Virus record (IMG/VR): IMGVR_UViG_3300032236_000862
Location: 1 to 64,000 of that record
Length of the DNA: 64,000 nt
Reading direction: 5' to 3' (one strand)
DNA from: a virus
Shown here one piece after another: positions 7,932 through 29,409 of this stretch (positions are counted from its first letter, which is position 1; each line of letters begins with the position of its first letter). The notes beneath the pieces are model-generated. The model worked only from the letters and a program-made list of their open reading frames with translations, was not told where the DNA came from and ran no database searches. A program made the translations under genes and the position numbers.

Positions 7932-8921
7932 TCACCTATTAAACTCTTTAGGGATGTACCCCTCTTTAAATGGCCCGTACTTAAGGTTGATCTTTGTGTA
8001 CCTGCAGAACCGGTCAACCTTGGCCTTGTTAGCCGGGTTAGTTACGTACTTTACCCAGTTGTCCCTAATATTGTTGTAGTACTGCTCATTAGGAAGTATC
8101 TTAGGGTTGGCTCCACTTACCCTGTAGGTTGGGTGCAGTACTTGATCAAAGTCTGTATTATTTTGAAATAGATGAGATAAAGGAACGGTCATGTTTGGAA
8201 AGACTAAAGAAAAGCCAGCCTCTAGCAAACTCATGGTTTGAATGATCTCTTCTTCCCAGAAAATAGTGTCTATATCTAAGCCGGTATTACCAAAATAATG
8301 CTTGTTAGAGAAGACAAACTGAGCGTTAAACTTAACAGCAGGTACATATAGATCGTCTGACCTGTACATGTGCGAATCAGGACCGGCCAACGGTTCGTCT
8401 TTCCAAGCAGGAATTCCTGTATTTACCCATGTCCTAAACAACATGATGGGGTACTGGGCAAGCTTATCGTGCCTTAAAGGAACACGCTCACCGTTATCTA
8501 GATGTTTAAACCCAGGCAAATAAGCTGTCATAATTGTTTTTGGATTTTGAGTAGCTTCTAGGGCACCCTCGTACATCTTAATAAGCTTAGTATCCCAATT
8601 TCTTTCAAAGAGTGTATGGGAATCTACTTGAAGAATATAGTCTTCCCCGTCATACATAGATAGGGCTTGATCTCGACCAAAACCGATAGACGGTTCATAC
8701 TCCCCTACCTTAAACCTCTTAAACTTAACTTGGGAGAATTCAAGTAGCTTCTCAATCTTATCTTTATAGTAGAACTCATAGTCTACATTTGAATGGGCAG
8801 TCTCCATAAGAACAAGGCCTATAGTTAAGTCGTCTGGATTAGCGGCGCTTTGGATAGCCTCAAATACGGTAAAGGGAACCTGGTTATCATACATGGTTGG
8901 GATAGCAATATAAATAGACAT
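7932..8921 (-). CDS. Glycosyltransferase, GlcNAc-transferase (GT60/Gnt1-like) family
   Basis: SIYIAI start, YILQVDSH..F..WD, TAYLP, F.EEE motifs. Confidence 0.75.
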   Translation of the reverse strand: MSIYIAIPTMYDNQVPFTVFEAIQSAANPDDLTIGLVLMETAHSNVDYEFYYKDKIEKLLEFSQVKFKRFKVGEYEPSIGFGRDQALSMYDGEDYILQVDSHTLFERNWDTKLIKMYEGALEATQNPKTIMTAYLPGFKHLDNGERVPLRHDKLAQYPIMLFRTWVNTGIPAWKDEPLAGPDSHMYRSDDLYVPAVKFNAQFVFSNKHYFGNTGLDIDTIFWEEEIIQTMSLLEAGFSLVFPNMTVPLSHLFQNNTDFDQVLHPTYRVSGANPKILPNEQYYNNIRDNWVKYVTNPANKAKVDRFCRYTKINLKYGPFKEGYIPKEFNR

Positions 8922-8922
8922 A

Positions 8923-9084
8923 TTAATCCTCTAGGTCTACAAAGGTTGGGTTATTTAAAAACAGGGATGCCAATCTAGCACTGTTTACTGCGAAGACTTC
9001 TACAATCTCTCCGTCTATTACTATACCTAGACGTATAGACCTTACCTCAGCAACTGGCTCGGCTTCCTTTTTCTTTTTAAACAT
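8923..9084 (-). CDS. Small protein, 53 aa (paralog of 16210-16452)
   Basis: MFKKKKEAEPVAEVRSIRLGIVIDGEIVEVFAVNSARLASLFLNNPTFVDLED. Confidence 0.7.
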   Translation of the reverse strand: MFKKKKEAEPVAEVRSIRLGIVIDGEIVEVFAVNSARLASLFLNNPTFVDLED

Positions 9085-9767
9085 CATGAATACTCCTTTG
9101 GCTTACGCCATCGTCTTTTATAAACACCTGTTGTAGAGCGAAGAGTGCTGCTTCTTTCCACTTGATTATCTGTCTCAGTGTAGTCTTGGACGGATACCCA
9201 CTTATCCCTTTTAATGGGGATTAGCTGGGCAATCGGTGTTCCTGCAGGTATTGTACCTGTCCAACCCTCTCTTATGAAAAAGGGTACGTTACCCCAACCA
9301 GTAAACTCTTCGCTGTCAACAATCCCAGACATAGTAGTGAAAGGTAGGTCAAATCTATTTATTGGGTGCGTTAAAAGTGCGCTATATCCTGGAGGAACTT
9401 TCCAACCCCATTGACAGTTCCATGCAAGGTGGTTGTGGGCATGTCCAGCAGGACGTGGAATAGTATGGCCTGTCAAACCAAGTCGTTCGGTTAACACGGG
9501 GAAGCCTGTCTCTTCCCAGCTTAATCTAGATAGGCCCTCTTCGTCTAAAGTTACTTCTACATCAACGGGGGTAACCAACATATAACCAGAAATCATTGCG
9601 TCTAGAAAAGGTACACAGACTTTTAAGCCGTCGTATTTGACGCCATGCTTATCATAGTAATGACGCTCAGCATTTTTATACCAGTCTGGGACTTCGCTCT
9701 TTGCTGGTACTGGCGGTTTATGTTCTTTTTTTACACCAGGACTAGGTACAAACCTAAAGACCTTCAT
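9084..9767 (-). CDS. DUF6065-like (dUTPase-fold-like) protein, copy B
   Basis: K.C.PF.D...GY, W.W..P.G.S.L.THP.NR.DLPF, GTP.AQ.IP.KR; strongly similar to 15500-16192. Confidence 0.6.
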   Translation of the reverse strand: MKVFRFVPSPGVKKEHKPPVPAKSEVPDWYKNAERHYYDKHGVKYDGLKVCVPFLDAMISGYMLVTPVDVEVTLDEEGLSRLSWEETGFPVLTERLGLTGHTIPRPAGHAHNHLAWNCQWGWKVPPGYSALLTHPINRFDLPFTTMSGIVDSEEFTGWGNVPFFIREGWTGTIPAGTPIAQLIPIKRDKWVSVQDYTETDNQVERSSTLRSTTGVYKRRWRKPKEYS

Positions 9768-9786: not shown

Positions 9787-11052
9787 TTAACCTGTGATCG
9801 TGGCCGTAAAGTAACCTAAGGTACTTCCCTGAGCTTGATCCGACGTAGTCAAAATTATACCAGCTTTTGTTGCGGTAGGAGAACTGCCTAAAGTGGTTGT
9901 GGCGGTACCTACGCTAGTGGTTTGTGAATTATCGCTAAACGCTGTGGCGGTAACTGAAGTACCGTGAACTACAACCTTTAGAGAAGCTAAAATACCACTT
10001 AGGGTGGTGGTGGCAAGCGTGGAAACTGTTCCGGCCACTGATTGGTAAATTTTAAGCAAATACCGGATGTTCGTAGTTGTGGCAGACCCTGTTGCTGTAT
10101 AGGTAGATGAAACAGTATAACTACCGGTAGACGAGTAGGTTCCGGAATAGTATGGAGAGTAATTTGTGTAGGATCCTAGTGAACTATAAGAGGTGTAAGT
10201 TTGTGCTGTATATGGACTACTTACATCGCCAGTATTAGCTACAGCGTTGTTATATGAGGTGTAGGTTGGTTGAACATACGTGCTGTAGGTACCGTATTGA
10301 ACTACATACCGCTGTGAACCAACATATTGTCCGCCACCTATGTAAATATATGGTGCCTGGTATACACCAGGGTTTGCGGCGTAATACTGGTAGGTTCCGT
10401 GATCCCAATACCCTGCAGTAACATAGTTATACACGGTAGAGTATACGTATGCTCCGTCCCAAGAATAGTTGGTTCCTGAAACATAGTTTCCTGTACCTTG
10501 ATAAACAGTAGAGTAGTAGTAAGTGGTTCCGCTCGCATAATAACCTAGTGGCGTACCTGAGGTATATGGGGTGGCGTAGGTGTATGGGGCTGCATATGTG
10601 TACGGGGCAGTATAAGAATATGAGTACGTAAAGTAAGTATCGCTCTCAACACCCACAGCAGCAAGCCAGTTATTAGCATCAGTAACTAAAAAGGCAATAC
10701 CACTACCTAGGCTTACGTCGGCAGCAGTAGCGGTTATGTTTGGGTTACCCATATCTGTAGTAGATAGGGTGTTGTTTGAAGGAGAATCATAAGTTACTGC
10801 TTTTCCTGTAGCAGCAGCCCAGGTTCCCTTAAGAGAGGTCCAAAGACCTCCGCTTGAAGAGGTTCCTAGAAATGGCCCACCACGATTAAAAGTATCGGCA
10901 AATGATCCAGTAAACCACTGATGCCAAACGCCACCAATTTTAACCCAACCAGATGTTACAGAGTGCCAGCTTTGAATACCGCCGGTTGTCACCTTAGTTA
11001 GAATACTACCAGCTGTACGCCAAACCCCGCCTACTTTGACTTGACCACTCAT
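9787..11052 (-). CDS. Tyr-rich virion appendage protein B
   Basis: N-terminal KVGGVW repeats, F.DTFNR...LGTSSSGG.W scaffold, Tyr/Thr/Ser-rich insert. Confidence 0.65.
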   Translation of the reverse strand: MSGQVKVGGVWRTAGSILTKVTTGGIQSWHSVTSGWVKIGGVWHQWFTGSFADTFNRGGPFLGTSSSGGLWTSLKGTWAAATGKAVTYDSPSNNTLSTTDMGNPNITATAADVSLGSGIAFLVTDANNWLAAVGVESDTYFTYSYSYTAPYTYAAPYTYATPYTSGTPLGYYASGTTYYYSTVYQGTGNYVSGTNYSWDGAYVYSTVYNYVTAGYWDHGTYQYYAANPGVYQAPYIYIGGGQYVGSQRYVVQYGTYSTYVQPTYTSYNNAVANTGDVSSPYTAQTYTSYSSLGSYTNYSPYYSGTYSSTGSYTVSSTYTATGSATTTNIRYLLKIYQSVAGTVSTLATTTLSGILASLKVVVHGTSVTATAFSDNSQTTSVGTATTTLGSSPTATKAGIILTTSDQAQGSTLGYFTATITG

Positions 11053-11987
11053 TATACATACACCAACCAGACATCGCCTTCAATGCCTTGTCCAGAGGTT
11101 GGGGTAGAAGTGCTTACCCACGTATTGCGTACCACGTTAGAGGATGCTGTTACTGTAGATGCTGTTGTGACTGATCCGTTAGTCTGAGAGACGTATGAGG
11201 TTGTAGGTGTCTGCCAAGCAGGTAGGCCAGCAACCACTGTAAGAACTTGTCCGGTAGATCCGATACCCAAGCGTGTGTTTCCGCTGTTATAGATATGAAG
11301 GTCGCCGTTTGTTGTCAAAGTGCTTGTAGGAAGATATGAAGGTAGGGTAGACCAGGTTGGGATACCCCCAGAAACGGTCAGATACTGCCCTGTAGAGCCA
11401 ATACCTATGCGGCCTACAGTAGATGACCCAGTACCGTAGATAAGGTCTCCAGCGGTCGTTACAGTCGAAAGAGGGACCTTTGTAGCGATGGAGTTAGGCA
11501 GGGTTGTTGTAATAGATGTATTTAGGGAGTTGTAGTCAGTGCTGCCCACATAGAGAACGTTGCTTCCGCTTACCTGTGGAATACCCAAATAGCTTAAGGT
11601 AAACCCTGCTGTAGTAAGAAGGTTATTGGTTCCAGAACCAGTAGTTAGGGTGAGGCCCACACCGCCAGCAGAACTGGTAAGGATGGTGCTGCCGCCAGTT
11701 TTAGATACATACGGAGCGTTACCTACGCCATAGATCAGACCGTTTTCAATGTTTGCAAGACGCTGAGCTAGGGTAGTCCAGGATGTTGTACCTGTGCTAA
11801 AAGCTGTAGATGATGTGAAGTTAGATACAAGAACGCCGCCTGCAAAGCCGTCAGAAGGAACTCCGAGGCCTGTCTCAATAGCTCTGACTTCTTGCTGCAG
11901 AGAGTTTACGTCATTAGCTACAACAGTATCCTGAAGATCTACACGAGCTGTGTAGGGATAGACTGCACTAGGAAAACCGACTGTCAT
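11052..11987 (-). CDS. Tail fibre-like protein
   Basis: A.DVN.LQ.E..AIE start; two TT.GDL...R.GIGSTGQ.LTV..G.P.W repeats; C-terminal GD.W. Confidence 0.7.
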   Translation of the reverse strand: MTVGFPSAVYPYTARVDLQDTVVANDVNSLQQEVRAIETGLGVPSDGFAGGVLVSNFTSSTAFSTGTTSWTTLAQRLANIENGLIYGVGNAPYVSKTGGSTILTSSAGGVGLTLTTGSGTNNLLTTAGFTLSYLGIPQVSGSNVLYVGSTDYNSLNTSITTTLPNSIATKVPLSTVTTAGDLIYGTGSSTVGRIGIGSTGQYLTVSGGIPTWSTLPSYLPTSTLTTNGDLHIYNSGNTRLGIGSTGQVLTVVAGLPAWQTPTTSYVSQTNGSVTTASTVTASSNVVRNTWVSTSTPTSGQGIEGDVWLVYV

Positions 11988-12043: not shown

Positions 12044-12478
12044 CTAGCCAACTAGGTACTTGGTGCAGACCCCATAGATACCCTCAAAGATAGTTAAATC
12101 TTGGGGCTCTGTTAAGACCACGATTGACTTGTTGGTCAAGGTCTTGCCTGGGTAGGTCCAGATATATCCATTACTTGTCAGGGTGTGGTCGTCATTCTGG
12201 TGCCAGAAGAACCTGGCATCCGGGATGTTGTTAGAAAAATAGCCTAGGGCTTCTATGTTCTTGCAGTGGAACCAGGCTTTATCTTTAATAGAGTTGATAA
12301 ACTCCTCGTCAATCTGGTAGAAGGGTTCGTCATGTCCTAGGAACATACCCTCCGGATTCATCCAGACGTCCACTTCTACGTCATAGCCTTGAGCAATAGC
12401 AGAGATCACATCAACCGGGTTATTCTCCCCGTCTTTGTTCTCCCCACGGACCATACCCCTGTGGGCAATCTTAATCAT
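12044..12478 (-). CDS. GDPD/PLC-like phosphodiesterase-fold protein
   Basis: IAHRG, EN, GYDVEVDVW, LGHD.P, W.HCKN. Confidence 0.75.
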   Translation of the reverse strand: MIKIAHRGMVRGENKDGENNPVDVISAIAQGYDVEVDVWMNPEGMFLGHDEPFYQIDEEFINSIKDKAWFHCKNIEALGYFSNNIPDARFFWHQNDDHTLTSNGYIWTYPGKTLTNKSIVVLTEPQDLTIFEGIYGVCTKYLVG

Positions 12479-13829
12479 TGTTGCTCCTCAAATAGTTGTT
12501 TAGATCCTCTGGAGTTCCAACTCCCCACATCTTATTAACATGCATAGCGTAGACACGCTTCCCGTCATTAATAGCTTCATTAAATACTGGGGCAGTGTAG
12601 AACTCTCCGTTGACAGTGATGTTCTTTTCAATCATCTGCTGAGCATACTTAACAAAGTCTGACCCATGCTTCCAATAGTAGATGCCCACTGTAGCGTGAT
12701 TACTAATAGGCTTCTTCTCAGCAACCTCTAAGACAAGGCCGGTATCGGAAGCGACTCTTGCATACGACCACTTAGGGTGGGTAGAGGTAAAGGTGGCAAT
12801 ACCTGCGTCAGCATTCTTGACATGCATGTGGTACATAAACTCTCTGCTATCCCAGTCAACTATCTGATCTGAGTTAGCTATGATGAGAGGGGCATCCATA
12901 TCAATGAAGTCTTTTGCCAATAAGCAGGTCTGTGCAGCCCCGCCTGTGAGATAAGGTGTTCCGACCAAGGTGCAGCCGGGGGTCATCCTATCTAACATGA
13001 ACATAAGGTTATACTTCTCAATGTGTTCTTGCAAAGACACATAAATATACTTAGCCTCTATACCAAGGCTTTCAACTACACGCTCAATCATAGGCTTGCC
13101 ATTTACCTCAATTAAGGGCTTGGGGAAGCTGTAACCAGCCTCAGCAAAACGACTACCTAACCCTGCCATAGGAATAAGGACGTTTAGTTTCTGGTCTTTA
13201 AAAGAAGAGGTCTTAGAAAGATGTTCAATAGCCATATCAATCTTTTCCTTTGTTAGGTCCGCCCTATTTTTGACCTCTATTAGATGGGCTCCGCTATCCC
13301 TAGCAGCAAGCTTACCTACAAAGCTATCTTCAAAAATAACTACCTTCTCTGGAATAGTCCTAAGGTGGCTCATCACAGCCCAGTACATCTCTGGATGGGG
13401 CTTGGGATTTTCAACGCTTTCATTTGATAAGGCAATATCAACATAGGAAAGTACCCCTAACTTAGTTAGGCAATCCCTTACTGTGTTGCCGATGCTATTG
13501 CTAGCAACACCTATCTTAATTCCTTTTGAGGCAATAAGCTCAAAGTATTCAATAAGGCCATTATCTTCTAAGACTTCAGCAAACATCTCAGTCGTGTACT
13601 GCTGCTTTAACTCCCAGATTAAAGGGTGAACTTCTTGAGATAACCCTTTATTTTCTGATAGTAAAAATAGCTTTTCTTTAGTAGGAAGGCCTTCGTATAT
13701 GTTAGTGTGCTCAAAGGGGCTAATCACACTTTCTGGGGATACATCTGCCAGCGCCTTGTTTAGGGCAAGAAAGTGAATATCCTTGCTGTCAATCAAGACA
13801 CCATCAAGATCAAAGATTATGACTTTATT
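12471..13829 (-). CDS. HAD phosphatase fused to a sugar nucleotidyltransferase (GT2_BcbE-like)
   Basis: FDLDGVL, KPHP, FEDS; then IPMAGLGSRF, PKPLI, IANSDQ, HPKWSY, EFY; likely start MNKVII. Confidence 0.85.
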   Translation of the reverse strand, partial: NKVIIFDLDGVLIDSKDIHFLALNKALADVSPESVISPFEHTNIYEGLPTKEKLFLLSENKGLSQEVHPLIWELKQQYTTEMFAEVLEDNGLIEYFELIASKGIKIGVASNSIGNTVRDCLTKLGVLSYVDIALSNESVENPKPHPEMYWAVMSHLRTIPEKVVIFEDSFVGKLAARDSGAHLIEVKNRADLTKEKIDMAIEHLSKTSSFKDQKLNVLIPMAGLGSRFAEAGYSFPKPLIEVNGKPMIERVVESLGIEAKYIYVSLQEHIEKYNLMFMLDRMTPGCTLVGTPYLTGGAAQTCLLAKDFIDMDAPLIIANSDQIVDWDSREFMYHMHVKNADAGIATFTSTHPKWSYARVASDTGLVLEVAEKKPISNHATVGIYYWKHGSDFVKYAQQMIEKNITVNGEFYTAPVFNEAINDGKRVYAMHVNKMWGVGTPEDLNNYLRSNND

Positions 13830-14836
13830 CATGCGGATAACCATGCTTTCAAGAAGGAATCGTTTTCAATAGTACTTATGACTTCTTCAGAGCTTCTATT
13901 TAAGTTAGGAATTGATACATACCTATGCCCCAAACGAGCAGCCATTAGATGGTAGAAGTGATGCATCTCTTCCGTTCCTACAGAAGGAGGTTCAGTAACC
14001 CCATTGCCCACTTTAGTAAACGCAATTAATGGAGTGGTTAGCTCTAATACCGCAGACCCTGGAGGCATAAATGCTGCGTTGACAAGTCCAGAACTAGTGG
14101 TGGATGCAACCAGCTTAGCCTTACTAAAATAGCTGATCTGGGATTCAAAGGTTTTAAACTCATCTGGAGCCACAATCTCAAACCCCAAAGAAGCAAAGTA
14201 TTCCTCTACCTTGCCCTCATCGTCCATGCGATCATCGTCTTCATAGGGAAGTCGTCCCTTAATCAAAGCTTTTAATGACCTACCCTTATAATTTTTTCTT
14301 GATAGGTATACCTTTTTACCGTCTGCAATATTTACATCCGGGGTAACAAATTGTTTGGACATCTCATGAATTCTTGGCCACGGGTTGTTAACCTCATAGG
14401 ACTCAACATTAAGATCCCTGAAGTACAGGTTATTGACATTAAACTTGTTCATAACCCTAAGATCTACAGGGGCATAGTCTACGTTGTTCTTGTTAAGAAA
14501 CTTAAAGAAGTTCTGGATATAGGTAGGCAGTGGATCCCTATCTACAACTCCGGTGATGTCAATAACGAACAGAGCGTCAGGAGTTAAGGCGTACTGAGCT
14601 AAAAACTCTCCCAGGTCTTCATGCATGAAGTGGTAGAAAGATGCCCCAAGATATACAAACACCTTCATCTGATCTGAAACAAGGTCTTTTACATGCTTCT
14701 CTTTTTTACCAAACTTAGGGTGGACCTGAAAAATATTGATGTTATTGGCCGCAACTAACCCTACTTCTTCTGGGGCAAAGCGGTAAGACGTTTGATACGA
14801 CGTATGGTTTAGCGTAGTTGTGCTAGTAGACTTCAT
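13829..14836 (-). CDS. Glycosyltransferase family 61-like
   Basis: FYHF, KVYLSR, GFEIV.P, F..QI..F..A, SGL.N..FM.PG..VLEL. Confidence 0.8.
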   Translation of the reverse strand: MKSTSTTTLNHTSYQTSYRFAPEEVGLVAANNINIFQVHPKFGKKEKHVKDLVSDQMKVFVYLGASFYHFMHEDLGEFLAQYALTPDALFVIDITGVVDRDPLPTYIQNFFKFLNKNNVDYAPVDLRVMNKFNVNNLYFRDLNVESYEVNNPWPRIHEMSKQFVTPDVNIADGKKVYLSRKNYKGRSLKALIKGRLPYEDDDRMDDEGKVEEYFASLGFEIVAPDEFKTFESQISYFSKAKLVASTTSSGLVNAAFMPPGSAVLELTTPLIAFTKVGNGVTEPPSVGTEEMHHFYHLMAARLGHRYVSIPNLNRSSEEVISTIENDSFLKAWLSA

Positions 14837-14838
14837 TG

Positions 14839-15114
14839 TTATCCCTCTATTATTTTTGTCAAATCATCTTCTGTGAGTTCCCTATCAAAAGGGAGATCCG
14901 GAGTTACCCACTTGTTTAGTGGGCAGGTGGCGTCTTGGAGCTTAACTTTAGCATTCATTATGCATCCGCATTCACGGCACTGGTGGGTTAGCTTGATAAA
15001 CCGCTCACAGCCTTTGCAGGTATTAAGCCTGTTTTGGGCAATAGCCGGAAGTGCACGCTCCATGTTCTTGTTTAACATGTCCCATGGCTTTACTTCCCTT
15101 GGGGCATCAGACAT
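14839..15114 (-). CDS. Cys-rich small protein (DUF6171-like)
   Basis: RL..C..C...C..CGC...K......CP..KW. Confidence 0.65.
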   Translation of the reverse strand: MSDAPREVKPWDMLNKNMERALPAIAQNRLNTCKGCERFIKLTHQCRECGCIMNAKVKLQDATCPLNKWVTPDLPFDRELTEDDLTKIIEG

Positions 15115-15500
15115 TACTCTGCACCTCTTCGGGTCACCCCTTGTACATTAAACGGCTCAAACTTACCGTCTTTATACATAGATCCAATAGTTGGGCGTTC
15201 ATCACCCTCATTGACCGGTGCAAATACTGGGCCCTTTAAAAGAATATCCGCAAAACCCTTTTGAACATTCATGACATCTACAACCACATCATCTAAGACA
15301 ATGGCTAAAGAAACTACCTCTATACCGGTAGGCTGCTCATTTACTGCGCATTCGGGACCGTGCACGTGCTCCGCAGGGGCATGGTTGTGCTCATGGCTGT
15401 GCTTCTTTTCCCTACGCTTGTTCTTTAGGTACTTAGCAAACTCTTTAGTGCCCATAGGCTTAATCTCTGGAACGTCGTAGTTCCTAATGACTTTATCCAT
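15114..15500 (-). CDS. His-rich protein with a C-terminal domain paralogous to 16210-16452
   Basis: HSHEHNHAPAEHVHGPEC then LAIVLDDVVVDV...P.F; start taken from the TAATG overlap at 15500. Confidence 0.6.
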   Translation of the reverse strand: MDKVIRNYDVPEIKPMGTKEFAKYLKNKRREKKHSHEHNHAPAEHVHGPECAVNEQPTGIEVVSLAIVLDDVVVDVMNVQKGFADILLKGPVFAPVNEGDERPTIGSMYKDGKFEPFNVQGVTRRGAE

Positions 15501-16192
15501 TATTCGTAATCCTTCTTGACCCACTCAACGTTTTTATACTTGTATTGTTCGACACGTACATTTGCAGACTTAATTTTTCCCAAAGCCGTAAGACCTACGT
15601 CTACGAATGACCTCCACGAGTCTCTCTTTACGGGAATAATTTGAGCAAATGGGGTACCGGCAGGAATAGTTCCAGTCCAACCTTCTTTTAGGTGGAATGG
15701 GATATTACCATTAGTAAAGAACTTATCACTGTCAATAGTAGCAGACATAGTTCTAAATGGAAGATCGCCCCTATTAAAAGGGTGAGTAACAATAGTACTC
15801 CAGCCCCTGGGGGTTTTCCAACCCCACTTAGATGACCATACTAAATGGTTCTTGCGGTGCCCGGCAGGAATTGGAATAGTTGCTCCAATAGCCCCAGGAC
15901 GTTCCCCCACAAATCCAGCCCATTCATCTGGGCCATCCCACTTCAAACCGATCTTTCCATTTTCATCTTCGGTCACGTGGATATCAAAGGGTATAAGGAG
16001 AAAATACCCTCCGATCATTACATCAATAAAGGGTTTACAGGTCTTAAGGCCGGCTTGGTTGTTGCCGTTTTCATCAACCCAATGGAACTCGCCGTCCCTA
16101 TACCACTGAGGTACATGCTTCTTGCATGCCGCAGGTTCGAGCAACATCTTTTCTTTGTCTTCAATTTCTGGAACAAATCGTATTACTTTCAT
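15500..16192 (-). CDS. DUF6065-like protein, copy A
   Basis: Same motif set as 9084-9767. Confidence 0.6.
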   Translation of the reverse strand: MKVIRFVPEIEDKEKMLLEPAACKKHVPQWYRDGEFHWVDENGNNQAGLKTCKPFIDVMIGGYFLLIPFDIHVTEDENGKIGLKWDGPDEWAGFVGERPGAIGATIPIPAGHRKNHLVWSSKWGWKTPRGWSTIVTHPFNRGDLPFRTMSATIDSDKFFTNGNIPFHLKEGWTGTIPAGTPFAQIIPVKRDSWRSFVDVGLTALGKIKSANVRVEQYKYKNVEWVKKDYE

Positions 16193-16209: not shown

Positions 16210-16452
16210 CTATGCCTGTGCTGGTGGTGGTGTAAAGGTATCGTTCTCGTAGAGGAACCCAGGGTCAACATATAGTGTCTTAGGGATCTGTACAAATGTA
16301 GGGTTAGAAAGGTAGCGAGCAGCATCTGTAGTGTCTAGATTAAACACTGTGTGCACAACGCCGCCAATTACCATGGCAACCCTATAACGACCTGTTGTTT
16401 CAGGCGCCGTTGGTGGTACTAGAGGTGGAACTGGTAGCAAATCGTCAGCCAT
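16210..16452 (-). CDS. Small partner protein (possible fibre assembly chaperone)
   Basis: VAMVIGGVVHTVF...LSNPTFV; directly after the Cys/Tyr-rich gene. Confidence 0.55.
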   Translation of the reverse strand: MADDLLPVPPLVPPTAPETTGRYRVAMVIGGVVHTVFNLDTTDAARYLSNPTFVQIPKTLYVDPGFLYENDTFTPPPAQA

Positions 16453-16463
16453 GTATTATCTCC

Positions 16464-18215
16464 TTAGTTTGACTGGGAATTGAAGTCGTCTAGTTGATTA
16501 CCTTGAACGTAATCAGAAGGTCCTAGGACGATTCCAAACTTAGTGGCTATTGTAGCACCTGTTGCTGTATATGTGAGGTCGGAACCTACTTGGGTGGTCA
16601 AAGCGGTATTTGAGTATGGGCGGACAGTAATAACCTTAGTTACAGCATTGGTAATTACCTTAAAAGCTGCAGCAAGCTGGGATAGGCTCCAACGGGTAAT
16701 CTCAGATACAACGTTTCCTGAGGACTGGATAAGTCGGATATATCCTGGGAAGCAGGTCTGGCAGTTACAAGAGGTGTATCCGTATACTGGGCTGGAGCAA
16801 TATGGGGCATAGGTAGAGTAATAAACCGTACATACTGGGCCATAATAGTTGTTTGTGTAAGAGTTGCAGTTAGGTCCAGAGTAGCTTACTATGCCGTAGC
16901 CGGCTACGTTAGGTCCAGAATAACTGACAATTCCGTAGTTGGCTAATGGGCCAGAGTAGCTAGTAAGTCCGTAGTTAGCATTTGGGCCAGAATAGCTGCT
17001 GGCTCCATAACCGTTACAGGTTGGGCCATTATAGCTTGAGATGCTATAAGAAACGCAAGTGCTTCCCGCATACACAACGCAGCTATAGCTTGCTACGCCA
17101 TATGCAGCGCAGCTATAGTAGGTTGAGTACGCCAAACAACCCGATACATACGCAGTACAGCCGTAGTTGCCCGAGCTTCCCTTAATGTAATAGTTGCCGC
17201 CCTTGTAGTAAACGTTGCTATAGCTTGTTACTCCATAGGAGCCACAGGCACCAGAATAATAAGTGGAGCATGCCCCACCAGATGAGTAAGATGAACAGCC
17301 GTAGTTATTTTGATAAGCAACACATTGAGGGGAGTAAGCTCCACAGGAATAGTTGGCCGAATAGGAATACCCTCCGGTACAGCCGTATCCAGTAATAGCG
17401 TACGAATAGCTGCTTACCCCATAGTTTGCTGCGTATGAGTAAGAAGAGATGCCGTAGTTTGTAGCATAGGAATAGGATGTTGCACCATAGTTAGTGGCGT
17501 AGGAGTATCCTCCGGTACAGGATGCGCTTACATAGTAGGCATAGTTACCACAGTAGCTTCCGGTAACATAGTTGGTAAATCCTGCACAAGAGTATGTAGC
17601 ACAAGTAGAGCAGTTACATGAGGTGTTGGTTGAACGGCCATAGGTTACGCCCCACCAGTTACCTGAGTCAGTAACCCATAGGGCAACTCCCGCACCACCA
17701 TCATTATTGCGGGTGGCAACGTTAGTAATGGTTCCTGTGGTAGGGGCTATGGTGGCCTGTACTTCAAGGGTAATCTGGCTTGAGCTATCTACAGAAACGA
17801 TCTGAATATCGCTATCTGATCCCAATGATCCGGTACCAGCTGTGGCTGAGATCCATTGTCCAGGTGCAAGTCCTCCTGTAGAACTAAGACCTGTAATAAC
17901 AACCGTATACCCACTAGTTGTGGCCGTTACGGTGGAGATAGTTCCTGAGGCAGAGAAGACAAAGGTAGATCCAACAGAGATTGATGAGGTATTGTTGCTG
18001 GAGGTCATATTGATATCAGCAAGGGGGAATGAAGATGCTGCTGTGGCAGTAGTAGCAGAGTATCCGTTGGCGCTCCAAACGCCACGCTCTGCGTTCCAAG
18101 CACCGCCTGAGCTAGATGTTCCTAGCGAACCTGAGGTGGTTCTGTTAAAGTTATCCGAAAAGGTAGCAAACGCCGTTTGGATAAAGTTCATTAACCCTTG
18201 AAAAATACCAGACAT
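16464..18215 (-). CDS. Cys/Tyr-rich virion appendage protein A
   Basis: FSDNFNR...LGTSSSGGAW scaffold shared with 9787-11052; 24-Cys insert. Confidence 0.7.
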   Translation of the reverse strand: MSGIFQGLMNFIQTAFATFSDNFNRTTSGSLGTSSSGGAWNAERGVWSANGYSATTATAASSFPLADINMTSSNNTSSISVGSTFVFSASGTISTVTATTSGYTVVITGLSSTGGLAPGQWISATAGTGSLGSDSDIQIVSVDSSSQITLEVQATIAPTTGTITNVATRNNDGGAGVALWVTDSGNWWGVTYGRSTNTSCNCSTCATYSCAGFTNYVTGSYCGNYAYYVSASCTGGYSYATNYGATSYSYATNYGISSYSYAANYGVSSYSYAITGYGCTGGYSYSANYSCGAYSPQCVAYQNNYGCSSYSSGGACSTYYSGACGSYGVTSYSNVYYKGGNYYIKGSSGNYGCTAYVSGCLAYSTYYSCAAYGVASYSCVVYAGSTCVSYSISSYNGPTCNGYGASSYSGPNANYGLTSYSGPLANYGIVSYSGPNVAGYGIVSYSGPNCNSYTNNYYGPVCTVYYSTYAPYCSSPVYGYTSCNCQTCFPGYIRLIQSSGNVVSEITRWSLSQLAAAFKVITNAVTKVITVRPYSNTALTTQVGSDLTYTATGATIATKFGIVLGPSDYVQGNQLDDFNSQSN

Positions 18216-18829: not shown

Positions 18830-21800
18830 TTAAGCCTGAGCTTCTGTCCAAGATACACGACCGTATACGGTCGCAGAAGATGATGGAGATAGGTTGGTAA
18901 CTACGATAGTAAGAACGTCTGGGCCATCTGGGTAGATACCTGTATTTGCCACGGTTGTTCCGCCACCGATAATAGAGTTACCTAGATCACGGATCTGAGA
19001 CAAGTCAGAGGTACCAGTACCTGATACGAAGAAACCACCGGTCTTTTCACCGCCTGAAAGGGTTACTGAAGCTCCAGCGTAGTCAGCAATCTGGGCAAGA
19101 GAAGAGTTAGGTACGTTTGCCGCACCTGACACTGCGTTTGTCCAAGTAGTTGCTGCAGAAGGCACACCGTTAAGATAAGCCAATACCAACAGGTTAGCTG
19201 TTGAGGTATTAAGAATTGAGATATCCAGTGTGGAGAGCGTCAGCTGCATTCTATTGATAAGTTCACGAGTACCAAAGGCTGCGGCAATACCGTTATCCAC
19301 AGATGGTGCGCAACGGATTGAGAACAATGCCTTAGTGTTAACTACGCTAAAGCTAAGTGTTGCTCCAACCAAAGTAGTAGCGATGTTCTGGTTAATAGTG
19401 AAAGTCGTGCTGCTATTAACTGTGGTGACCACTGAACCAGCAGTCAATGCTCCAGTACCGCCGGTAACAGTGACCGTCTGACCTACTACTACGTTAGCGG
19501 TAGAGGATACGGTAATTTGAGCTTGACCGCTATTGCCTGATGCGCCGGTAATCGAGAACACTGCTGAAGGTCCAAGACCGGTTGAGTTAGTCTGACCGTA
19601 AGTAAAGAGGAGGGACTTATCGCCGTCAAAGCGACCATCCATAATTACCGATGTTCCCCAGTGAGAAATAGCTGGGGCAAAGGTTGGATAGGCAAACTCT
19701 ACAGAGATAGGAGAGGTAGACGAGTAGGAGAACGCAGCTCCAGTAGAAGTTACAGCTCCACTTGAACCTGTAGTAAAGCCCATAGGAGGGACAACAACTG
19801 TGGATGTTGATGCAGTAGCTGCCTGGCTCAAAGTAAAGGTGTTTGCTCCGCTGTTGATTGAGCTGATATATGTTCCATCTGGGATGGTAGTAGCAATAAC
19901 TCTCTGACCAACTTGAAGTCCAGCAGTAGCACCTGAAGCAACTGTAGCAACGTTTGAACCAGAAGCAAGAGTTACAGAGAGGGAAGTATTTCCAGCCTGA
20001 CCACGAGTTAATCCTGTAAAGGTTGTAGATGTGGTTCCTGTGTAGTTTACAAACTCTGTAACAACAAGGTTAGCTGTTGCAGTAGATGTAGAGCCTGTTG
20101 CAGTGCTGGCTACAGTAAAGTTAGTGTTAGCTGTCACAGAAGCAATAGTATACAGGCCGTTAAAGGCAGTATTTGTTGCGCCTGAGATAGAAACTACGTT
20201 TCCAGCAACAATTCCAGTAGTATTGCTTGTTGCATAAGTTACTACTGATCCAGAAGCTGTGATTCCGCTAATTGCAATTGCTGTAGTTGTATTACCACGA
20301 ATTGACAGAGTTCCAGAAGTTGGGAACTTAGAGGTATCAGAAACTGTAAGAGTTGTATCTGATGCGGCTACGCCAGCAGTTAGGTTGGTAACTGAAGGGG
20401 TTGTTGAGGTTTCATAACGACCAGGTAGGTTACCTGAACGCATGTAAGCTTCTGTGTTTACGTTGTTGTTAGCCATCTTATGGACATAGGTAACGTCACC
20501 GCTAGGTCCACGAAGACCCCAGCGAACGAAGCCCGCACCATACCAGGTGTAGTCAACATAGAACATCTGCATCTTGGTAAGATCAAGAACATAACCTGAA
20601 GGTCCTGTTCCATCCATCTTGTCAAGATTCCACTGAGATTGTGGGATCTTAAAGTCAACGGTCTTTGATAGAACTACGCTTGAGGCAGTTGACCCACGAT
20701 ATGCAGGGCTGATAGTCAAGCTTGTATCAGACTGAATATCTGTTACACGGTACGACTGGCCACGAAGAACAATGTAGTCTCCAGGGATCAGCTGACGGGA
20801 GAAGTAAGTTGGGAAGGATGAGATAGTCTGCTGAACAGTATTTGAACCGTTAACTACAGATACCTTTCCTGAAATTTGGTAGGTTGAGTTACGACGTACC
20901 GCATAGATAGTGGTTCCGTCAAACTCAAAGAACAAACCGTTTTGCTGATCAAAGATTCCAAGGCGGCTAGCTGCACCAAACCACTGGCTTACTGAGAGCG
21001 TATAGTTACCTGAGGCTACAGTAGCTGAAGGTGTGGTTGCTGCAGTATATGTGAACTGATTCCAACCAGTTACAGAGGTTACGGTAAAGTTTCCGTTATA
21101 TGCGGCTTCATTAGCTCCGCTAACGTTGATAGCAACACCTGGGGTAATATTATGGCGTTCCTTTGTCTGTACGGTAACAGTTGTTCCTGAAGAGGTAATA
21201 GAGTCAAGGTTAGCATAAGGCTTCAAGATTGTTCCTGAAGACATCTGGATACCCTTACCAGACTGGTAGCGGAAGTAACGGCGGGTCTGACGAATAGCCT
21301 GCTCGTAGTTTGAACCACCATTGCTTGAGAACAGTACTCCACCGTCAAATGCTCGGTGAGCAAACTGGCCTTGAGGACGTACGTATACTGTAGCAGAGGT
21401 GGCAACAAGTGTTCCACCGGTAATTGAAGCTGCTGGGTAGACAATAAATGAGGTTGGGTTAAGCACAGTTGAGACGACAAATGAACCATTAGGGTTAGTT
21501 CCAGTAGCTCCAGTAATACCAATAATTGCTACTTCATTGCCAATAGCTAATCCGTGAGGGATAGTGGTTGTTACTGTAAGAGCGTTAGTTCCAGCAACAT
21601 ATGAAACAGTAGGTGCTCCACCAATTGCAGCATTTGAGTAGACGTTGCCTTGATATATGGCTGTCTTATTTGGGTCAAAAATCGAGGTAAAGGCTGTGTT
21701 ATTTGCAGCCCTAGCTGTGTAGGTAAAGTTTGTTCCCGCAGAAACAGTTTCTACAATAAAGTTACCGTTTGCAATTCCTAGGTATGTATCAAGAACAGAC

Positions 21801-22582
21801 ACAGGAGTACCGACTGTTGGAGGAGTAGCAGTAAGCACTGTAACTGTCCTAGAGCCTGAGGACATCTGAACATCAGTAACGTTTTGAATTGTGTACTGGT
21901 TCTGATATGCATATGGGCGGTTGTTAATCATGGCTAGATTTTCCCACTTAGAAACCTGTGTGCCATATTCAAAGTCAGTATCAATAAGCGCTTGCGGAGA
22001 AGATGTGCGCATCTTGTTTGTTGGATCTACTAGAGTCTGATCAGGAGTAATCTTTTCAGCATACTCATCAATAGTGATCTGAAGCTTATCTGTAGCAGAC
22101 ATAGCTGAAGTATTGTAGTTAAGTACGATTACTGTGTTTGCGGCAGCTGTAATAGTTCCGCCAGAAATCCAGGTAGTTCCAGAAGTCAAATAGTTGTTTG
22201 TTGCGGTCTGGGTTGCAATAGTAAAGCTTGAGGCGTTTGCTGTAGCGATTACGCCTGTGATATTGAAGGCGTTTGGAATTGCTCCAGTGATGGTAACAGT
22301 CTGACCTGCTAAGAATGAGTTAGGTGCTGTGACGGTAGTGATTGTTCCTACTGTGGCTGGGGTTACGGTCATGCCGCTTGCGTAGGCAACTAGCTGGCCG
22401 TCTGCGTAGCTTCCATATGTGGTAGCAAGTAGCGATGGATCAGAGAAGTTATAGATTACCTTGTTTTTAGTAACGTTTGTAATAAGGACCAGGCGTTCCT
22501 GCCCAACATACCTTGGAATTACGACTGTTTTTGTTGACGGTACGAAGGTATATCCCGTATCAAATAAGATCTTTCTTGCCAT
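18830..22582 (-). CDS. Large virion structural protein with repeated beta (FCCH-like) modules
   Basis: 1250 aa, Thr/Ser-rich; LIDTDFEYG.Q..KWE, RQTRRYFRYQSGKG; repeated HG...G..V.I.G...NG.F modules. Confidence 0.7.
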   Translation of the reverse strand: MARKILFDTGYTFVPSTKTVVIPRYVGQERLVLITNVTKNKVIYNFSDPSLLATTYGSYADGQLVAYASGMTVTPATVGTITTVTAPNSFLAGQTVTITGAIPNAFNITGVIATANASSFTIATQTATNNYLTSGTTWISGGTITAAANTVIVLNYNTSAMSATDKLQITIDEYAEKITPDQTLVDPTNKMRTSSPQALIDTDFEYGTQVSKWENLAMINNRPYAYQNQYTIQNVTDVQMSSGSRTVTVLTATPPTVGTPVSVLDTYLGIANGNFIVETVSAGTNFTYTARAANNTAFTSIFDPNKTAIYQGNVYSNAAIGGAPTVSYVAGTNALTVTTTIPHGLAIGNEVAIIGITGATGTNPNGSFVVSTVLNPTSFIVYPAASITGGTLVATSATVYVRPQGQFAHRAFDGGVLFSSNGGSNYEQAIRQTRRYFRYQSGKGIQMSSGTILKPYANLDSITSSGTTVTVQTKERHNITPGVAINVSGANEAAYNGNFTVTSVTGWNQFTYTAATTPSATVASGNYTLSVSQWFGAASRLGIFDQQNGLFFEFDGTTIYAVRRNSTYQISGKVSVVNGSNTVQQTISSFPTYFSRQLIPGDYIVLRGQSYRVTDIQSDTSLTISPAYRGSTASSVVLSKTVDFKIPQSQWNLDKMDGTGPSGYVLDLTKMQMFYVDYTWYGAGFVRWGLRGPSGDVTYVHKMANNNVNTEAYMRSGNLPGRYETSTTPSVTNLTAGVAASDTTLTVSDTSKFPTSGTLSIRGNTTTAIAISGITASGSVVTYATSNTTGIVAGNVVSISGATNTAFNGLYTIASVTANTNFTVASTATGSTSTATANLVVTEFVNYTGTTSTTFTGLTRGQAGNTSLSVTLASGSNVATVASGATAGLQVGQRVIATTIPDGTYISSINSGANTFTLSQAATASTSTVVVPPMGFTTGSSGAVTSTGAAFSYSSTSPISVEFAYPTFAPAISHWGTSVIMDGRFDGDKSLLFTYGQTNSTGLGPSAVFSITGASGNSGQAQITVSSTANVVVGQTVTVTGGTGALTAGSVVTTVNSSTTFTINQNIATTLVGATLSFSVVNTKALFSIRCAPSVDNGIAAAFGTRELINRMQLTLSTLDISILNTSTANLLVLAYLNGVPSAATTWTNAVSGAANVPNSSLAQIADYAGASVTLSGGEKTGGFFVSGTGTSDLSQIRDLGNSIIGGGTTVANTGIYPDGPDVLTIVVTNLSPSSSATVYGRVSWTEAQA

Positions 22583-23755: not shown

Positions 23756-25381
23756 TTATCCGAAGACTACTACACGAATTTGGTTTGTTGTAGGTGCTGT
23801 TGAGAAGGCAACTGTAACGGTTGTAGTAGAGGTGTGGGTAACGTCCGCAAGGTATTCAGCGTTAGTTGTGGTATCGTAAAGTGTGACCTGAACGTCCTTT
23901 GTACCCAAGTTGTGAGTAACAACGTAAGAGAGGGTTGCTCCATCACCAATTGATGTAGCGTACTTTCTGACCACTACTGTGGTGTCAATAGCAACTGTGC
24001 CAGTGCTTACGACGATACCTGCACCAGCTCCGACAGCTAGGCCAGAAGAGGTAGTGCCGAGACCTGAGTTAGTAGCTAGGAGGATCGAAGCTCCTGAGGC
24101 ACCTGTCTGCAAACCACCGGTTGAGAGTGGGTTAAATGTAAAGTTAGATCCTGTGAGGGTTACGCCGTTTGAAGCAGTGTAGGTACCGGCACCAGAGAAC
24201 TGAGAGAACTCAATGTTATCTGTACCAATTTTAATTGCTTTTGCAGGAGTGGTAGCAGTACCTGTGTCAATCTGAGACCAGCCCTGTGCTGTCTGAGAAG
24301 TGGTTCCAGATACACCAGATACGAAGACAAAGTCACCGGCAGTTACCTGACCAGGGATATGGTTGTCTGCGTCGGTTGCACGAGTAAGAACTGTTGATAC
24401 ACCAGTAGTACCAGCTGTAGTAACTGTGTAAATACCGTTTTGAGTCTTGGTAGTCTGGTTCTTTACAAGCACACGGTCATTGAGCTGAAGTGTGTAGCTA
24501 TCAATTATTGATGTACCAGTTGTGCCGTTTGTAAGAGTTGCGCCAACACCGGTACCTTGTGAAGCATCTGCAGAACCGTTAGCGTAGGTCCAACCTGTAA
24601 GGTTTACTGTAGTAGCAACAAGTGCTGAGTCGTGGACGTTAAGTCCCTGAGCAACACCGTCTACGTAGTTCTTTGTTGCAGCATCTTGTGCGGCAGTTGG
24701 GTCAGCAAGACCTGTAATCTTTTGTGCGTTAAATGCTACTGCAGAGGTTGGAACGCCAAATGCAGATAGTGCAAAACCGCTAGGAGCAAAACCGTGGACG
24801 TGGTCATCCTTAGCTGGAGCAGTTCCAGAACCGTTGGCTGCAGTTGTTGTAGAGATATTTGTTGCAGCATTTGCTGAAAGAGAAGGCGTACCGTGAGTGT
24901 GGTCAGAGTGAGCAACTGTTGTGGCAGAACCTGTTGCTGATGCAATACCATAAGTGGTAGCGGCTGTTACTGCAGCAAAACCTGGGCCTGCGTGAGAGTG
25001 GTCTGCACGGGCATAGTTAGTGGATGTTCCGTCAGCTTGAACTTGAGCTACGGAAGCTGCGGTTGAAAGACCTGTACCAAAAGCGTGGGTCTGCTGCCAA
25101 GTGGTTCCGTTAGAGTAGTAAACTAAGAAGTTATCAGTAGCATAATAGAAGGTGCCTGATGCTACAGCAGTCGCAACTGGACGAGAAGCAAGTGCACCTG
25201 CGCTAATTCCGTCAGCAGAACCCCAAGCAGTACCATTCCAGATATACAAACCATTAAGAGCAGTGTCGTAGTAGATCTGACCTACTACTGGAGATGAAGG
25301 CGCCGTTGCAAGGTTTTGAATTCGAGCATTTTGAAGCTCAAGCTTGCCTAAATCAATTGGGGTTAAAAACTTACGTGCCAT
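23756..25381 (-). CDS. Fibre/decoration protein
   Basis: ARADH.H repeats, ITGLADPT..QDAATKNYVD, DRVLVKNQ...NGIY, HNLGT. Confidence 0.7.
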   Translation of the reverse strand: MARKFLTPIDLGKLELQNARIQNLATAPSSPVVGQIYYDTALNGLYIWNGTAWGSADGISAGALASRPVATAVASGTFYYATDNFLVYYSNGTTWQQTHAFGTGLSTAASVAQVQADGTSTNYARADHSHAGPGFAAVTAATTYGIASATGSATTVAHSDHTHGTPSLSANAATNISTTTAANGSGTAPAKDDHVHGFAPSGFALSAFGVPTSAVAFNAQKITGLADPTAAQDAATKNYVDGVAQGLNVHDSALVATTVNLTGWTYANGSADASQGTGVGATLTNGTTGTSIIDSYTLQLNDRVLVKNQTTKTQNGIYTVTTAGTTGVSTVLTRATDADNHIPGQVTAGDFVFVSGVSGTTSQTAQGWSQIDTGTATTPAKAIKIGTDNIEFSQFSGAGTYTASNGVTLTGSNFTFNPLSTGGLQTGASGASILLATNSGLGTTSSGLAVGAGAGIVVSTGTVAIDTTVVVRKYATSIGDGATLSYVVTHNLGTKDVQVTLYDTTTNAEYLADVTHTSTTTVTVAFSTAPTTNQIRVVVFG

Positions 25382-27392: not shown

Positions 27393-28469
27393 TTAGTTGG
27401 TTTCTGCAATAACTACAGACTGATCGGTGATAAGACCGAGGCCGTAGATAGCGTACCATGCAAGAGCGTGCTCACGACCGAAGTCAAGAATACCGCCGTC
27501 ACGAAGCTCAACTGGAAGTGAGATAGCGTGACCGAATGCGTTGTCTCCAATGAAGATAGCTGAGTAGCGATCGTTTGAACCGTTACCTGTAGCTGTTACT
27601 GGAGTTGTGTAACCTCCGCCAGTTGGATAGGCGATTGATCCTGGAGCCACTGCTGTATCTGTGGTGTAGTTTGTACCAGCACCGTTGGTGACCTTTGAGA
27701 TCTGAGTTGTCTCAATGAAGACTGTGTCGTAGAGACGACCGATTTCACCGAGCATGAAGTTACCTGGAGCAGCGTACTTTGTTACTTCGATGAACTCTGG
27801 GAGGTCACGAAGACGACGGCTCTGGTGAGGGTGAACGAATGCGACGTAAGTCTCGCCCAACCTTGGGATGTTCTTGGTAGCCAAGGTCTCGACAGCGTCC
27901 TTAACGGTACGTGTTGAGAGGTATGAAGCACCGGTCATAGAAGCACGTGATGTAGCTGCTGTACCGTATGCATACCAGTTGTTGACTGCTGAGAGGTTTG
28001 AACGATCTTCACCGTAGATGACAGAAGATGCTGCCATGAGTGTGTCACGAGCCTGGCCATCAAGGTAGAGAGCCATGTTACGTCCAAGAAGACGTGAAGC
28101 TGATGCCATAACGTCATCGAATGATGCGTTGAGGAGAAGCTCGGATACTGCGATTGCGTAACCTTGCTCAGCAACAGTGATTGAGAACTGCTGTGCTGTC
28201 AATGCGTTTGTTGACATACGGACACCTTCAGTAAGTGTTGAAGCGAATCCGAGGTTGTTGTAACGCATGAAGTTGATCTGGAGACCAGGAGCTACGCCGA
28301 GTTCTGTCTTCTTGACTGCGAACTGCTCGAAGCGCAAGATAGGCATTGACTGGAATAGAATTTCCTTAGACCAGATGGTCTGAATTGCTTGTGTAAGCTG
28401 GCTGTTAGCGCCAGAATACGCTGTTGGGGCAGCGGCGAGATTACCGGTACCTGTTACGGCTGATGCCAT
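27393..28469 (-). CDS. Major capsid protein (N4-gp56-like)
   Basis: LTEGV, VHP.Q..LR, GEIG....F.ET, DFGR; follows the scaffold. Confidence 0.92.
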   Translation of the reverse strand: MASAVTGTGNLAAAPTAYSGANSQLTQAIQTIWSKEILFQSMPILRFEQFAVKKTELGVAPGLQINFMRYNNLGFASTLTEGVRMSTNALTAQQFSITVAEQGYAIAVSELLLNASFDDVMASASRLLGRNMALYLDGQARDTLMAASSVIYGEDRSNLSAVNNWYAYGTAATSRASMTGASYLSTRTVKDAVETLATKNIPRLGETYVAFVHPHQSRRLRDLPEFIEVTKYAAPGNFMLGEIGRLYDTVFIETTQISKVTNGAGTNYTTDTAVAPGSIAYPTGGGYTTPVTATGNGSNDRYSAIFIGDNAFGHAISLPVELRDGGILDFGREHALAWYAIYGLGLITDQSVVIAETN

Positions 28470-28521
28470 TTTGGTGTTACTCCTTGTTCATATATGTTAG
28501 GTTAGTAAAAATGGGTAGGTA

Positions 28522-29298: not shown

Positions 29299-29409
29299 GC
29301 TTATTCCTTTAGGTTAAGAGGTCGTTGTCCGATGTAGTGCCACGATGACCTGCGGGTTTGTTTAGGTGGTATATAGCCTCGCAAACTATTACTAGTTTGT
29401 CAGCCTAAA

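Follow-up and report, generated by a model that had tools for sequence, protein, structure and literature searches.

A mirror-ordered, 24-cysteine insert in a lectin-like protein of an uncultured phage is probably an antiparallel stalk with nested cysteine pairs

A gene for a 583-residue protein (P0001), read on the minus strand of an uncultured virus, has led us to ask what kind of structure would need 24 cysteines laid out in the same order, counted outward from a central loop, on both halves of a single insert. The gene lies in a stretch of 64,000 nucleotides, hereafter the window, which comprises positions 1 to 64,000 of the IMG/VR record IMGVR_UViG_3300032236_000862. Our analyses favour, with a probability of about 0.7, an antiparallel two-armed hairpin whose arms are joined by 12 nested cross-arm cysteine pairs and which is inserted into the lectin-like sandwich of a structural-region protein. 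The protein is probably fibre-associated and encoded by an uncultured 100-kb actinobacterial myophage.

All 24 cysteines of the protein fall within the insert, between a first motif CNCSTC (residues 200-205) and a last motif CNCQTC (residues 483-488). The gaps between them are 1, 2, 4, 11, 10, 45, 11, 6, 8, 8 and 7 residues on the outgoing (N) arm, 28 across the central loop, and 6, 8, 9, 7, 12, 49, 11, 10, 9, 1 and 2 on the returning (C) arm. An earlier note, made from the letters of the DNA, had listed the same cysteines, bounding motifs and spacings at 16752-17618, and every one of them was recovered exactly once the minus strand was read; a plus-strand reading of this interval was discarded because its frame is crowded with stop codons. 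The two long gaps of 45 and 49 residues each contain four repeat units, much as the note had seen, of about 11 residues ending in NYG on the N arm and of about 12-13 residues with SGPN on the C arm, the latter retaining about 81% identity at the DNA level. In composition the insert holds 60 tyrosines (21%), 53 serines and 40 glycines, with no aspartate, glutamate, arginine or histidine, and its sole charged residues, K338 and K345, both sit in the central loop. The earlier statement that lysines occur only at the tip is correct in that sense for the insert; the protein as a whole has three further lysines, in the C-terminal part of its base (residues 519, 527 and 559).

The mirror arrangement is most improbable by chance. 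The mirrored gaps differ by 17 in sum, while 200,000 shuffled gap orders averaged 122.6 and never fell below 21 (p<5e-6); if the gap order is modelled as a direct repeat, the fit is poorer (43 versus 17). A DNA palindrome was considered as the origin of the symmetry and ruled out, since no inverted DNA repeat was found, and the symmetry therefore exists at the protein level only. A recurrent motif surrounds the rungs as well: aromatic residues stand three positions after a cysteine at a frequency of 0.33-0.37 and two positions before it at 0.25, on both arms, against a background of 0.16, and 16 of the 24 cysteines have tyrosine or phenylalanine at +3. An identical flanking motif, read in the same chain direction on arms that run antiparallel, would give a local two-fold symmetry. 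At the DNA level, a 17-nucleotide direct repeat (94% identical; 16761-16777 and 17610-17626) encodes the two CNC(S/Q)TC motifs flanking the insert, and recombination between its copies would remove the entire stalk in frame.

The evidence that carries the proposal furthest comes from relatives, which were gathered as 58 homologues in a word-index search, 262 representative clusters in an exhaustive HMMER search and 53 IMG/VR loci, and which when pooled gave 200 full-length metagenomic members. Cysteines number from 0 to 46 per member and are even in 189 of the 200; the 11 odd members each have one isolated cysteine 24-122 residues upstream of the insert, and within the insert the number is even in all 197 cysteine-bearing members. 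Divided by four, the count leaves no remainder in 94 members and a remainder of 2 in 92, so that half of the family has an odd number of cysteines per arm and pairing within an arm cannot be complete. Of the 180 members that could be tested by permutation, 123 have a mirrored gap order at p<=0.01 (evenly spaced ladders, on which such a test is powerless, are among those that fail), and the mirror model is superior to the direct-repeat model in 163 of the 180. Across the family the ladder ranges from 2 to 23 rungs and the arms from 28 to 136 residues; stalk length differs fivefold among about 200 relatives, with the arms staying matched.

In disjoint pairs of nearest neighbours with equal cysteine number, when a gap changes by at least 4 residues the mirror gap follows (r=0.85), with 220 of 346 events concordant, 30 opposite and 73 one-sided. 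Among the closest relatives, at 67-87% identity, the repeat units number 4+4, 3+3 or 2+2, or each arm has one cysteine added near the tip, and more distant members show gaps such as 91/91, 38/38 and 48/51 at mirrored positions. Arm lengths are also correlated (r=0.985; contrasts r=0.91), but we have set this aside, as evenly spread cysteines would yield it trivially. The earlier note had proposed that homologues should gain or lose repeats in both arms together, and they do so, for cysteines as well as for repeats; this concerted change favours an antiparallel hairpin with nested cysteines over local sequential pairing. The insert thus has the marks of a cystine ladder, namely an even number of cysteines in mirror order about a turn and matched change of both arms. 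In two loci (L023:9887-10977 and L024:6905-7929) the ladder gene is split inside the insert into open reading frames of about 174-196 and 160 residues, for which a frameshift, a stop codon or a repeat assembly error could be the cause. DNA and protein searches of INPHARED gave no cultured-phage match to the gene, a pattern scan of GTDB gave no cellular relatives, and a search of the ESM Atlas returned unnamed viral clusters only.

The base from which the insert emerges is better defined. AlphaFold2, run on the whole protein with 35 homologues, gave block-mean values of the predicted local distance difference test (pLDDT) of 72-90 at residues 41-190 and of 80-94 at residues 491-570. In a VIA fold search against 48,161 representatives of the PDB, the best match was the carbohydrate-binding module CBM66 (4b1m; Z 15.4, 152 aligned residues, root-mean-square deviation 2.8), with an alignment running from residue 19 to residue 582, followed by a baseplate chain of mycobacteriophage Douge (8zdo_a; Z 14.4) and the receptor-binding domain of TM4 gp23 (9n6a; Z 14.2). 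These three alignments, over 152-175 residues at deviations of 2.8-3.5 and identities of only 9-11%, all cover both halves of the base; dozens of lectin, carbohydrate-binding and glycoside-hydrolase accessory domains follow at Z 9-14, and a Foldseek search of the PDB with the whole model returned weak matches (E about 0.01). On these models the base (residues 1-199 and 489-583) is a single sandwich of the concanavalin A (ConA)/CBM66 kind, interrupted by the insert, which bears out the beta-sandwich suggested in the earlier note (base pLDDT 80-90). The N-terminal half opens with a conserved F-x-D-x-F-N-R...SSSGG-W and contains a TDSGNWW strand immediately ahead of the insert. Membership in the ConA-like lectin/glucanase type holds at the level of fold and not at that of sequence family: no curated model in Pfam, PHROG or NCBIfam matched the protein, either half of its base taken alone or a diverse set of 40 relatives, with few exceptions among the relatives (fn3 in three, one of which also has a marginal PKD_4, and a few unnamed PHROGs).

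Several observations weigh against the hairpin, or against the chemistry that would hold it together. The insert itself was modelled at pLDDT 24-48 only, with no structural model of the stalk past its base, where AlphaFold2 pairs residues 205-233 with residues 453-481 as strands of 29 residues, at pLDDT below 50. The aromatic residues have no period-2 pattern, peaking instead at lag 5 and lags 11-13, as a plain beta-ribbon would not; rung periods are frequently odd, and mirrored gaps differ in length by 1-5 residues. The terminal CxCxxC motifs are direct copies of each other and not mirror images, with C202 and C485 one position off register. Three members of the family lack cysteine altogether, as does a paralogue in the window, so the insert can exist without any. 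Finally, the 583-residue protein has no signal peptide and would be made in a reducing cytoplasm, and no thioredoxin or glutaredoxin is recognisable in the phage genome.

What these points remove, in our view, is a regular fold more than a paired one. Odd rung periods, together with mirrored gaps that are often off by one, mean that the arms must be bulged or irregular; the mirrored gaps differ by about one residue per repeat unit, the C-arm units being longer by one near SGPN. Like the rung motif, the CxCxxC motifs that bound the insert, as direct and not mirrored copies, point to local two-fold symmetry. Of the giant antiparallel beta-hairpin first imagined for this locus, we accept the two antiparallel arms with their nested cysteine pairs, while a flat, regular beta-ribbon is not supported; the structure prediction that had been proposed as a check likewise gave a confident base and a poorly modelled insert. 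A complex prediction with the arms as separate chains (200-338 and 339-488) scored 0.02 against a mark of 0.34, and counts neither way. As to chemistry, the pairs are most likely disulfides, which are the most economical choice given that the cysteines are always paired, that the insert has no other metal ligands and that the particle would find itself in oxic water. With a reducing cytoplasm and neither a thioredoxin nor a glutaredoxin of the phage's own, oxidation would need to be spontaneous, to follow lysis or to be carried out by another factor; a search for Erv1 was uninformative, its controls being likewise without a match.

The same cytoplasm would suit a hairpin stapled by metal, in which the arms pair as we propose but the matched cysteines hold Zn, Fe or Cu, and the invariant CxCxxC motifs at both insert ends do resemble metal-binding spacings. 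Yet the nearly equal modulo-4 classes (92 against 94) argue against Cys4 sites as a general unit, the insert lacks the His, Asp or Glu with which sites might be completed, most rungs present a single cysteine 5-12 residues from the next, and a sequence with 21% tyrosine is unlike those of metallothionein type, so that we regard metal stapling as improbable. The pairing could also be between chains, the outgoing arm of one subunit bonding through interchain disulfides to the returning arm of another in a needle that is trimeric or domain-swapped. The gene's place in a fibre-like module, downstream of a fibre-like gene, would be natural for such an assembly; the tips of T4 gp37 and similar phage fibres run out and back within a trimer, and a conserved partner of the ladder protein (see below) is dUTPase-like in its predicted fold, dUTPases being trimers as a rule. 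This, too, seems to us unlikely, for the predicted base is a single-chain sandwich that the insert leaves and re-enters, and a hairpin within one chain accounts for mirror order and even counts without extra assumptions.

A quite different arrangement would be a beta-helix-like solenoid rod with local disulfides between cysteines that are near in sequence. Regular cysteine periods of 5, 7 and 11-12 residues, a sequence rich in Thr, Ser, Asn and Gly, and an aromatic period of about 5 rather than 2 are what one would expect from it; it nevertheless predicts a direct order of gaps, which most testable members contradict, it leaves odd-cysteine arms in half of the family, and it gives no reason for long cysteine-free gaps always to fall at mirrored positions (45/49, 91/91, 38/38). 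We consider it very unlikely. Least probable of all to us is a flexible, low-complexity linker, a disordered and sugar-coated spacer whose cysteines make occasional cross-links, even though the insert is modelled with very low confidence, genes for a GT61 glycosyltransferase, a PF11397 GlcNAc-transferase and a HAD-nucleotidyltransferase lie in the same block, and PF11397-type transferases accompany the ladder gene in 27 of the 53 loci. Disorder would leave the strict mirror order, the even cysteine number and the concerted changes of the arms unexplained, and glycosylation could still sit on a structured stalk.

If the antiparallel hairpin with nested pairs is correct, one may picture its construction as follows. 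One turn between two strands of the sandwich would have been replaced by the 289-residue insert, which would run outward for about 125 residues, turn in the 28-residue loop and return antiparallel over about 135 residues. The 12 nested pairs, of which C200-C488 would lie nearest the base and C324-C353 nearest the tip, would keep the arms in register, each rung being built on a motif of the Y-x-C-x-x-Y type that keeps one chain direction in either arm and so with local two-fold symmetry, and the disulfides would close once the particle reaches oxic water. As no rung can do without its partner, gain and loss of repeat units and cysteines would be confined to matched pairs, whence the concerted changes of the arms. 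The product would be a rigid projecting stalk of up to about 40 nm when fully extended, on the assumption that each of about 125-135 residues spans about 0.33 nm, and bulges probably shorten it.

Table. Coordinates, within the window, of the ladder gene, its parts and neighbouring genes
Feature	Position	Strand	Evidence
Complete ladder gene (P0001; 583 aa, lectin-like, with the cysteine-ladder insert)	16464-18215	-	Open reading frame list, translation
N-terminal part of predicted base domain, residues 1-199	17619-18215	-	AlphaFold2, ConA/CBM66-like fold, invariant columns
289-aa insert, residues 200-488, 24 cysteines	16752-17618	-	Cysteine positions, shuffle test
N arm (ascending), residues 200-324, 12 cysteines, begins CNCSTC	17244-17618	-	Cysteine positions, arm display
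Four ~11-aa N-arm units, residues 234-278, between C233 and C279	17382-17516	-	Arm display
Central 28-aa tip loop, residues 325-352, YYKGGNYYIKG	17160-17243	-	Cysteine positions, arm display
C arm (descending), residues 353-488, 12 cysteines, ends CNCQTC	16752-17159	-	Cysteine positions, arm display
Four ~12-13-aa SGPN-containing C-arm units, residues 401-449, between C400 and C450	16869-17015	-	
C-terminal part of predicted base domain, residues 489-583	16467-16751	-	AlphaFold2, VIA alignments to residue 582-583
Upstream fibre-like gene, 198 aa	18215-18811	-	Weak PHROG matches; synteny
1250-aa structural protein	18830-22582	-	43-48% identical to T4-like cyanomyovirus virion structural proteins (S-RSM4, S-PM2)
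80-aa partner gene, directly downstream	16210-16452	-	~80-aa protein in 37/53 related loci
DUF6065-like 230-aa partner	15500-16192	-	In 47/53 related loci
136-aa His/Lys-rich relative of the small partner	15114-15524	-	~110-150-aa counterpart in 25/53 loci
Paralogue, 421 aa, same base, cysteine-free Tyr-rich insert (~195 aa)	9787-11052	-	BLASTP, Pfam
DUF6065-like gene of the paralogue, following it	9084-9767	-	Pfam
Fibre-like gene ahead of the paralogue	11052-11987		

The setting of the gene is that of a tailed phage. The record from which the window is drawn is 100,328 bp long, with direct terminal repeats and a G+C content of about 46%, and genes for sheath, portal, terminase and major capsid proteins are recognised in it, the capsid protein sharing 72-74% identity with its counterparts in Streptomyces myophages, LuckySocke and BRock among them. 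The genome also carries three WhiB-family genes (G000:C1 47226-47435 (+), 74713-74934 (-) and 84751-84939 (-)), and in freshwater viromes WhiB is taken to mark actinophages (PMC6802176). Taken with the Streptomyces-myophage-like capsid protein, the WhiB genes signal an actinobacterial host. The ladder gene lies between capsid-side genes (27393-31128 and 23756-25381) and the sheath gene (2925-4685), in a gene order preserved in related contigs and in a block beside fibre-like genes, as expected of a virion or tail-fibre module. The 198-residue protein encoded just upstream gives weak PHROG matches, at the C-terminal ends of minor tail and tail fibre proteins, and genes related to it, encoding 204-767 residues, precede many of the homologues; in cultured relatives the corresponding interval holds a tailspike plus a few small genes. 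It is worth mentioning that the 1250-residue structural protein, encoded ahead of the 198-residue one, is cyanomyovirus-like (44% identical to virion structural proteins of cyanomyoviruses) despite the actinobacterial signals of capsid and WhiB genes, and it would seem that phages with hosts in different phyla share this structural gene. The block further contains a PF11397 GlcNAc-type transferase, a fusion of HAD and nucleotidyltransferase domains and a GT61 glycosyltransferase (7932-8921, 12471-13844 and 13829-14836 (-), respectively). The position of these sugar genes inside the structural block suggests that sugars may be activated and virion proteins glycosylated, possibly on their Ser/Thr/Tyr-rich inserts.

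The ladder gene travels with a small set of partners. The 80-residue one has no family match, and the DUF6065-like one, of which related loci often contain a second copy, was modelled by AlphaFold2 at pLDDT 93.5. The top 22 PDB matches to that model all belong to the dUTPase or dCTP-deaminase superfamily (Z 9.0-5.0), after which Z drops to 4.5 for one unrelated chain and then to 2.9; cupin-type and 2-oxoglutarate hydroxylase folds, which we had considered for this partner, were accordingly rejected, neither being listed. It has no dUTPase match at the level of sequence, and two of its segments, IDSD and AQ-I-P, presumably recall dUTPase motifs III and IV. A 91-residue cysteine-rich DUF6171-like protein (Pfam E 4e-6; 14839-15114 (-)) is encoded between the 136-residue partner gene and the GT61 gene, and in the four closest loci its position is occupied by a 91-residue open reading frame (88 residues in L005) without a BLAST match. 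The paralogue shares both halves of the base with the ladder protein (BLASTP E 9e-8 and 6e-6) and has its insert at the same position. As this cysteine-free protein has a DUF6065-like gene of its own, the partners are not specific for cysteines.

What would such a stalk be for? It is tempting to propose a rigid, length-tunable and fast-evolving probe or adhesin for the host surface, which would present the tip loop and its Tyr/Ser-rich flanks. A base that resembles receptor-binding domains of actinophages, a position in a fibre module, the combination of a conserved base with a hypervariable insert, and a composition rich in Tyr, Ser and Gly all point that way, though we hold this function only tentatively and put it somewhat below even odds. 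Variation driven by a diversity-generating retroelement was ruled out, there being no reverse transcriptase (no RVT_1 match) in the complete 100-kb genome; the absence of such an enzyme leaves ordinary gain and loss of repeats, under selection for matched arms, as the probable source of the variation.

Parts of this design have precedents. Theta-defensins, protegrins and tachyplesins are made of antiparallel strands with nested cross-strand disulfides and cysteines mirrored about a turn, but such peptides have 2-3 rungs within about 18 residues and a strict period of 2, whereas the proposed phage ladder has 12 rungs with periods of 5-12 and bulges, forms an insert within a folded domain and has a hypervariable length. 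CBM66 and the Douge and TM4 structures resemble the base at the level of fold, the two phage examples being host-binding parts of actinophages; to our knowledge, no long cysteine-rich insert has been described for any of the three. The needle of T4 gp37 is a thin, rigid host-recognition rod in which the chain runs out to the tip and back, stapled by iron at HxH motifs in an interwoven trimer. The likeness lies in matched motifs that cross-link outgoing and returning segments; the ladder insert, however, has no histidine and hence no HxH, uses cysteine instead and appears to be intrachain. The earlier comparison with ultralong antibody stalks holds loosely: the complementarity-determining region (CDR) H3 of bovine antibodies is likewise long and two-stranded and stands out from a beta-sandwich, with a varying cysteine content and a presumed binding end, yet its disulfides are in the knob, its stalk is unstapled and its diversity is somatic, while in the phage family the rungs sit in the stalk itself and change in the germ line by matched-pair gain or loss of repeats. 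The antifreeze beta-helix of Tenebrio molitor consists of 12-residue cysteine-containing coils with disulfides local to each coil, and shares with the insert Thr/Ser/Asn/Gly-rich repeats of about 12 residues and regular rungs along a rod; its repeats are in direct order, in contrast to a family in mirror order and often with an odd number of cysteines per arm. Small cystine-ladder hairpins and lectin-like phage adhesins are already known, and it is the scale and the matched-pair evolution that are unusual. Our literature search found nothing on DUF6065, on phage cystine ladders or on cysteine-rich structural proteins of cyanophages or actinophages, and no description of the ladder family or of such a design.

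Taken together, the elements may be joined in one picture, to which as a whole we give slightly less than an even chance: a self-registering cystine-ladder rod of 2-23 rungs and tens of nanometres, which arose from one turn of a lectin-like domain and whose length evolves freely, would serve aquatic actinophages as a hypervariable host-recognition probe, would also occur in cysteine-free versions zippered by tyrosines, the paralogue among them, and would be accompanied by a dedicated partner set, the small protein and the DUF6065-like one, that aids folding or maturation. Should the ladder be real, no cystine-ladder hairpin known to us would come near it in length; it would also be a natural rod whose length is genetically set in discrete, matched steps, and it would offer protein design a modular, covalently stapled nanorod. 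It would bear as well on the rules that relate sequence to structure, given that current structure predictors fail on the insert, and the roughly 200 natural variants form a ready test set for which the even-cysteine and mirror rules give sharp predictions. For phage biology, finally, it would mean that a large, unannotated and fast-evolving family occupies the fibre region of abundant uncultured actinophages, with a likely bearing on their host range.

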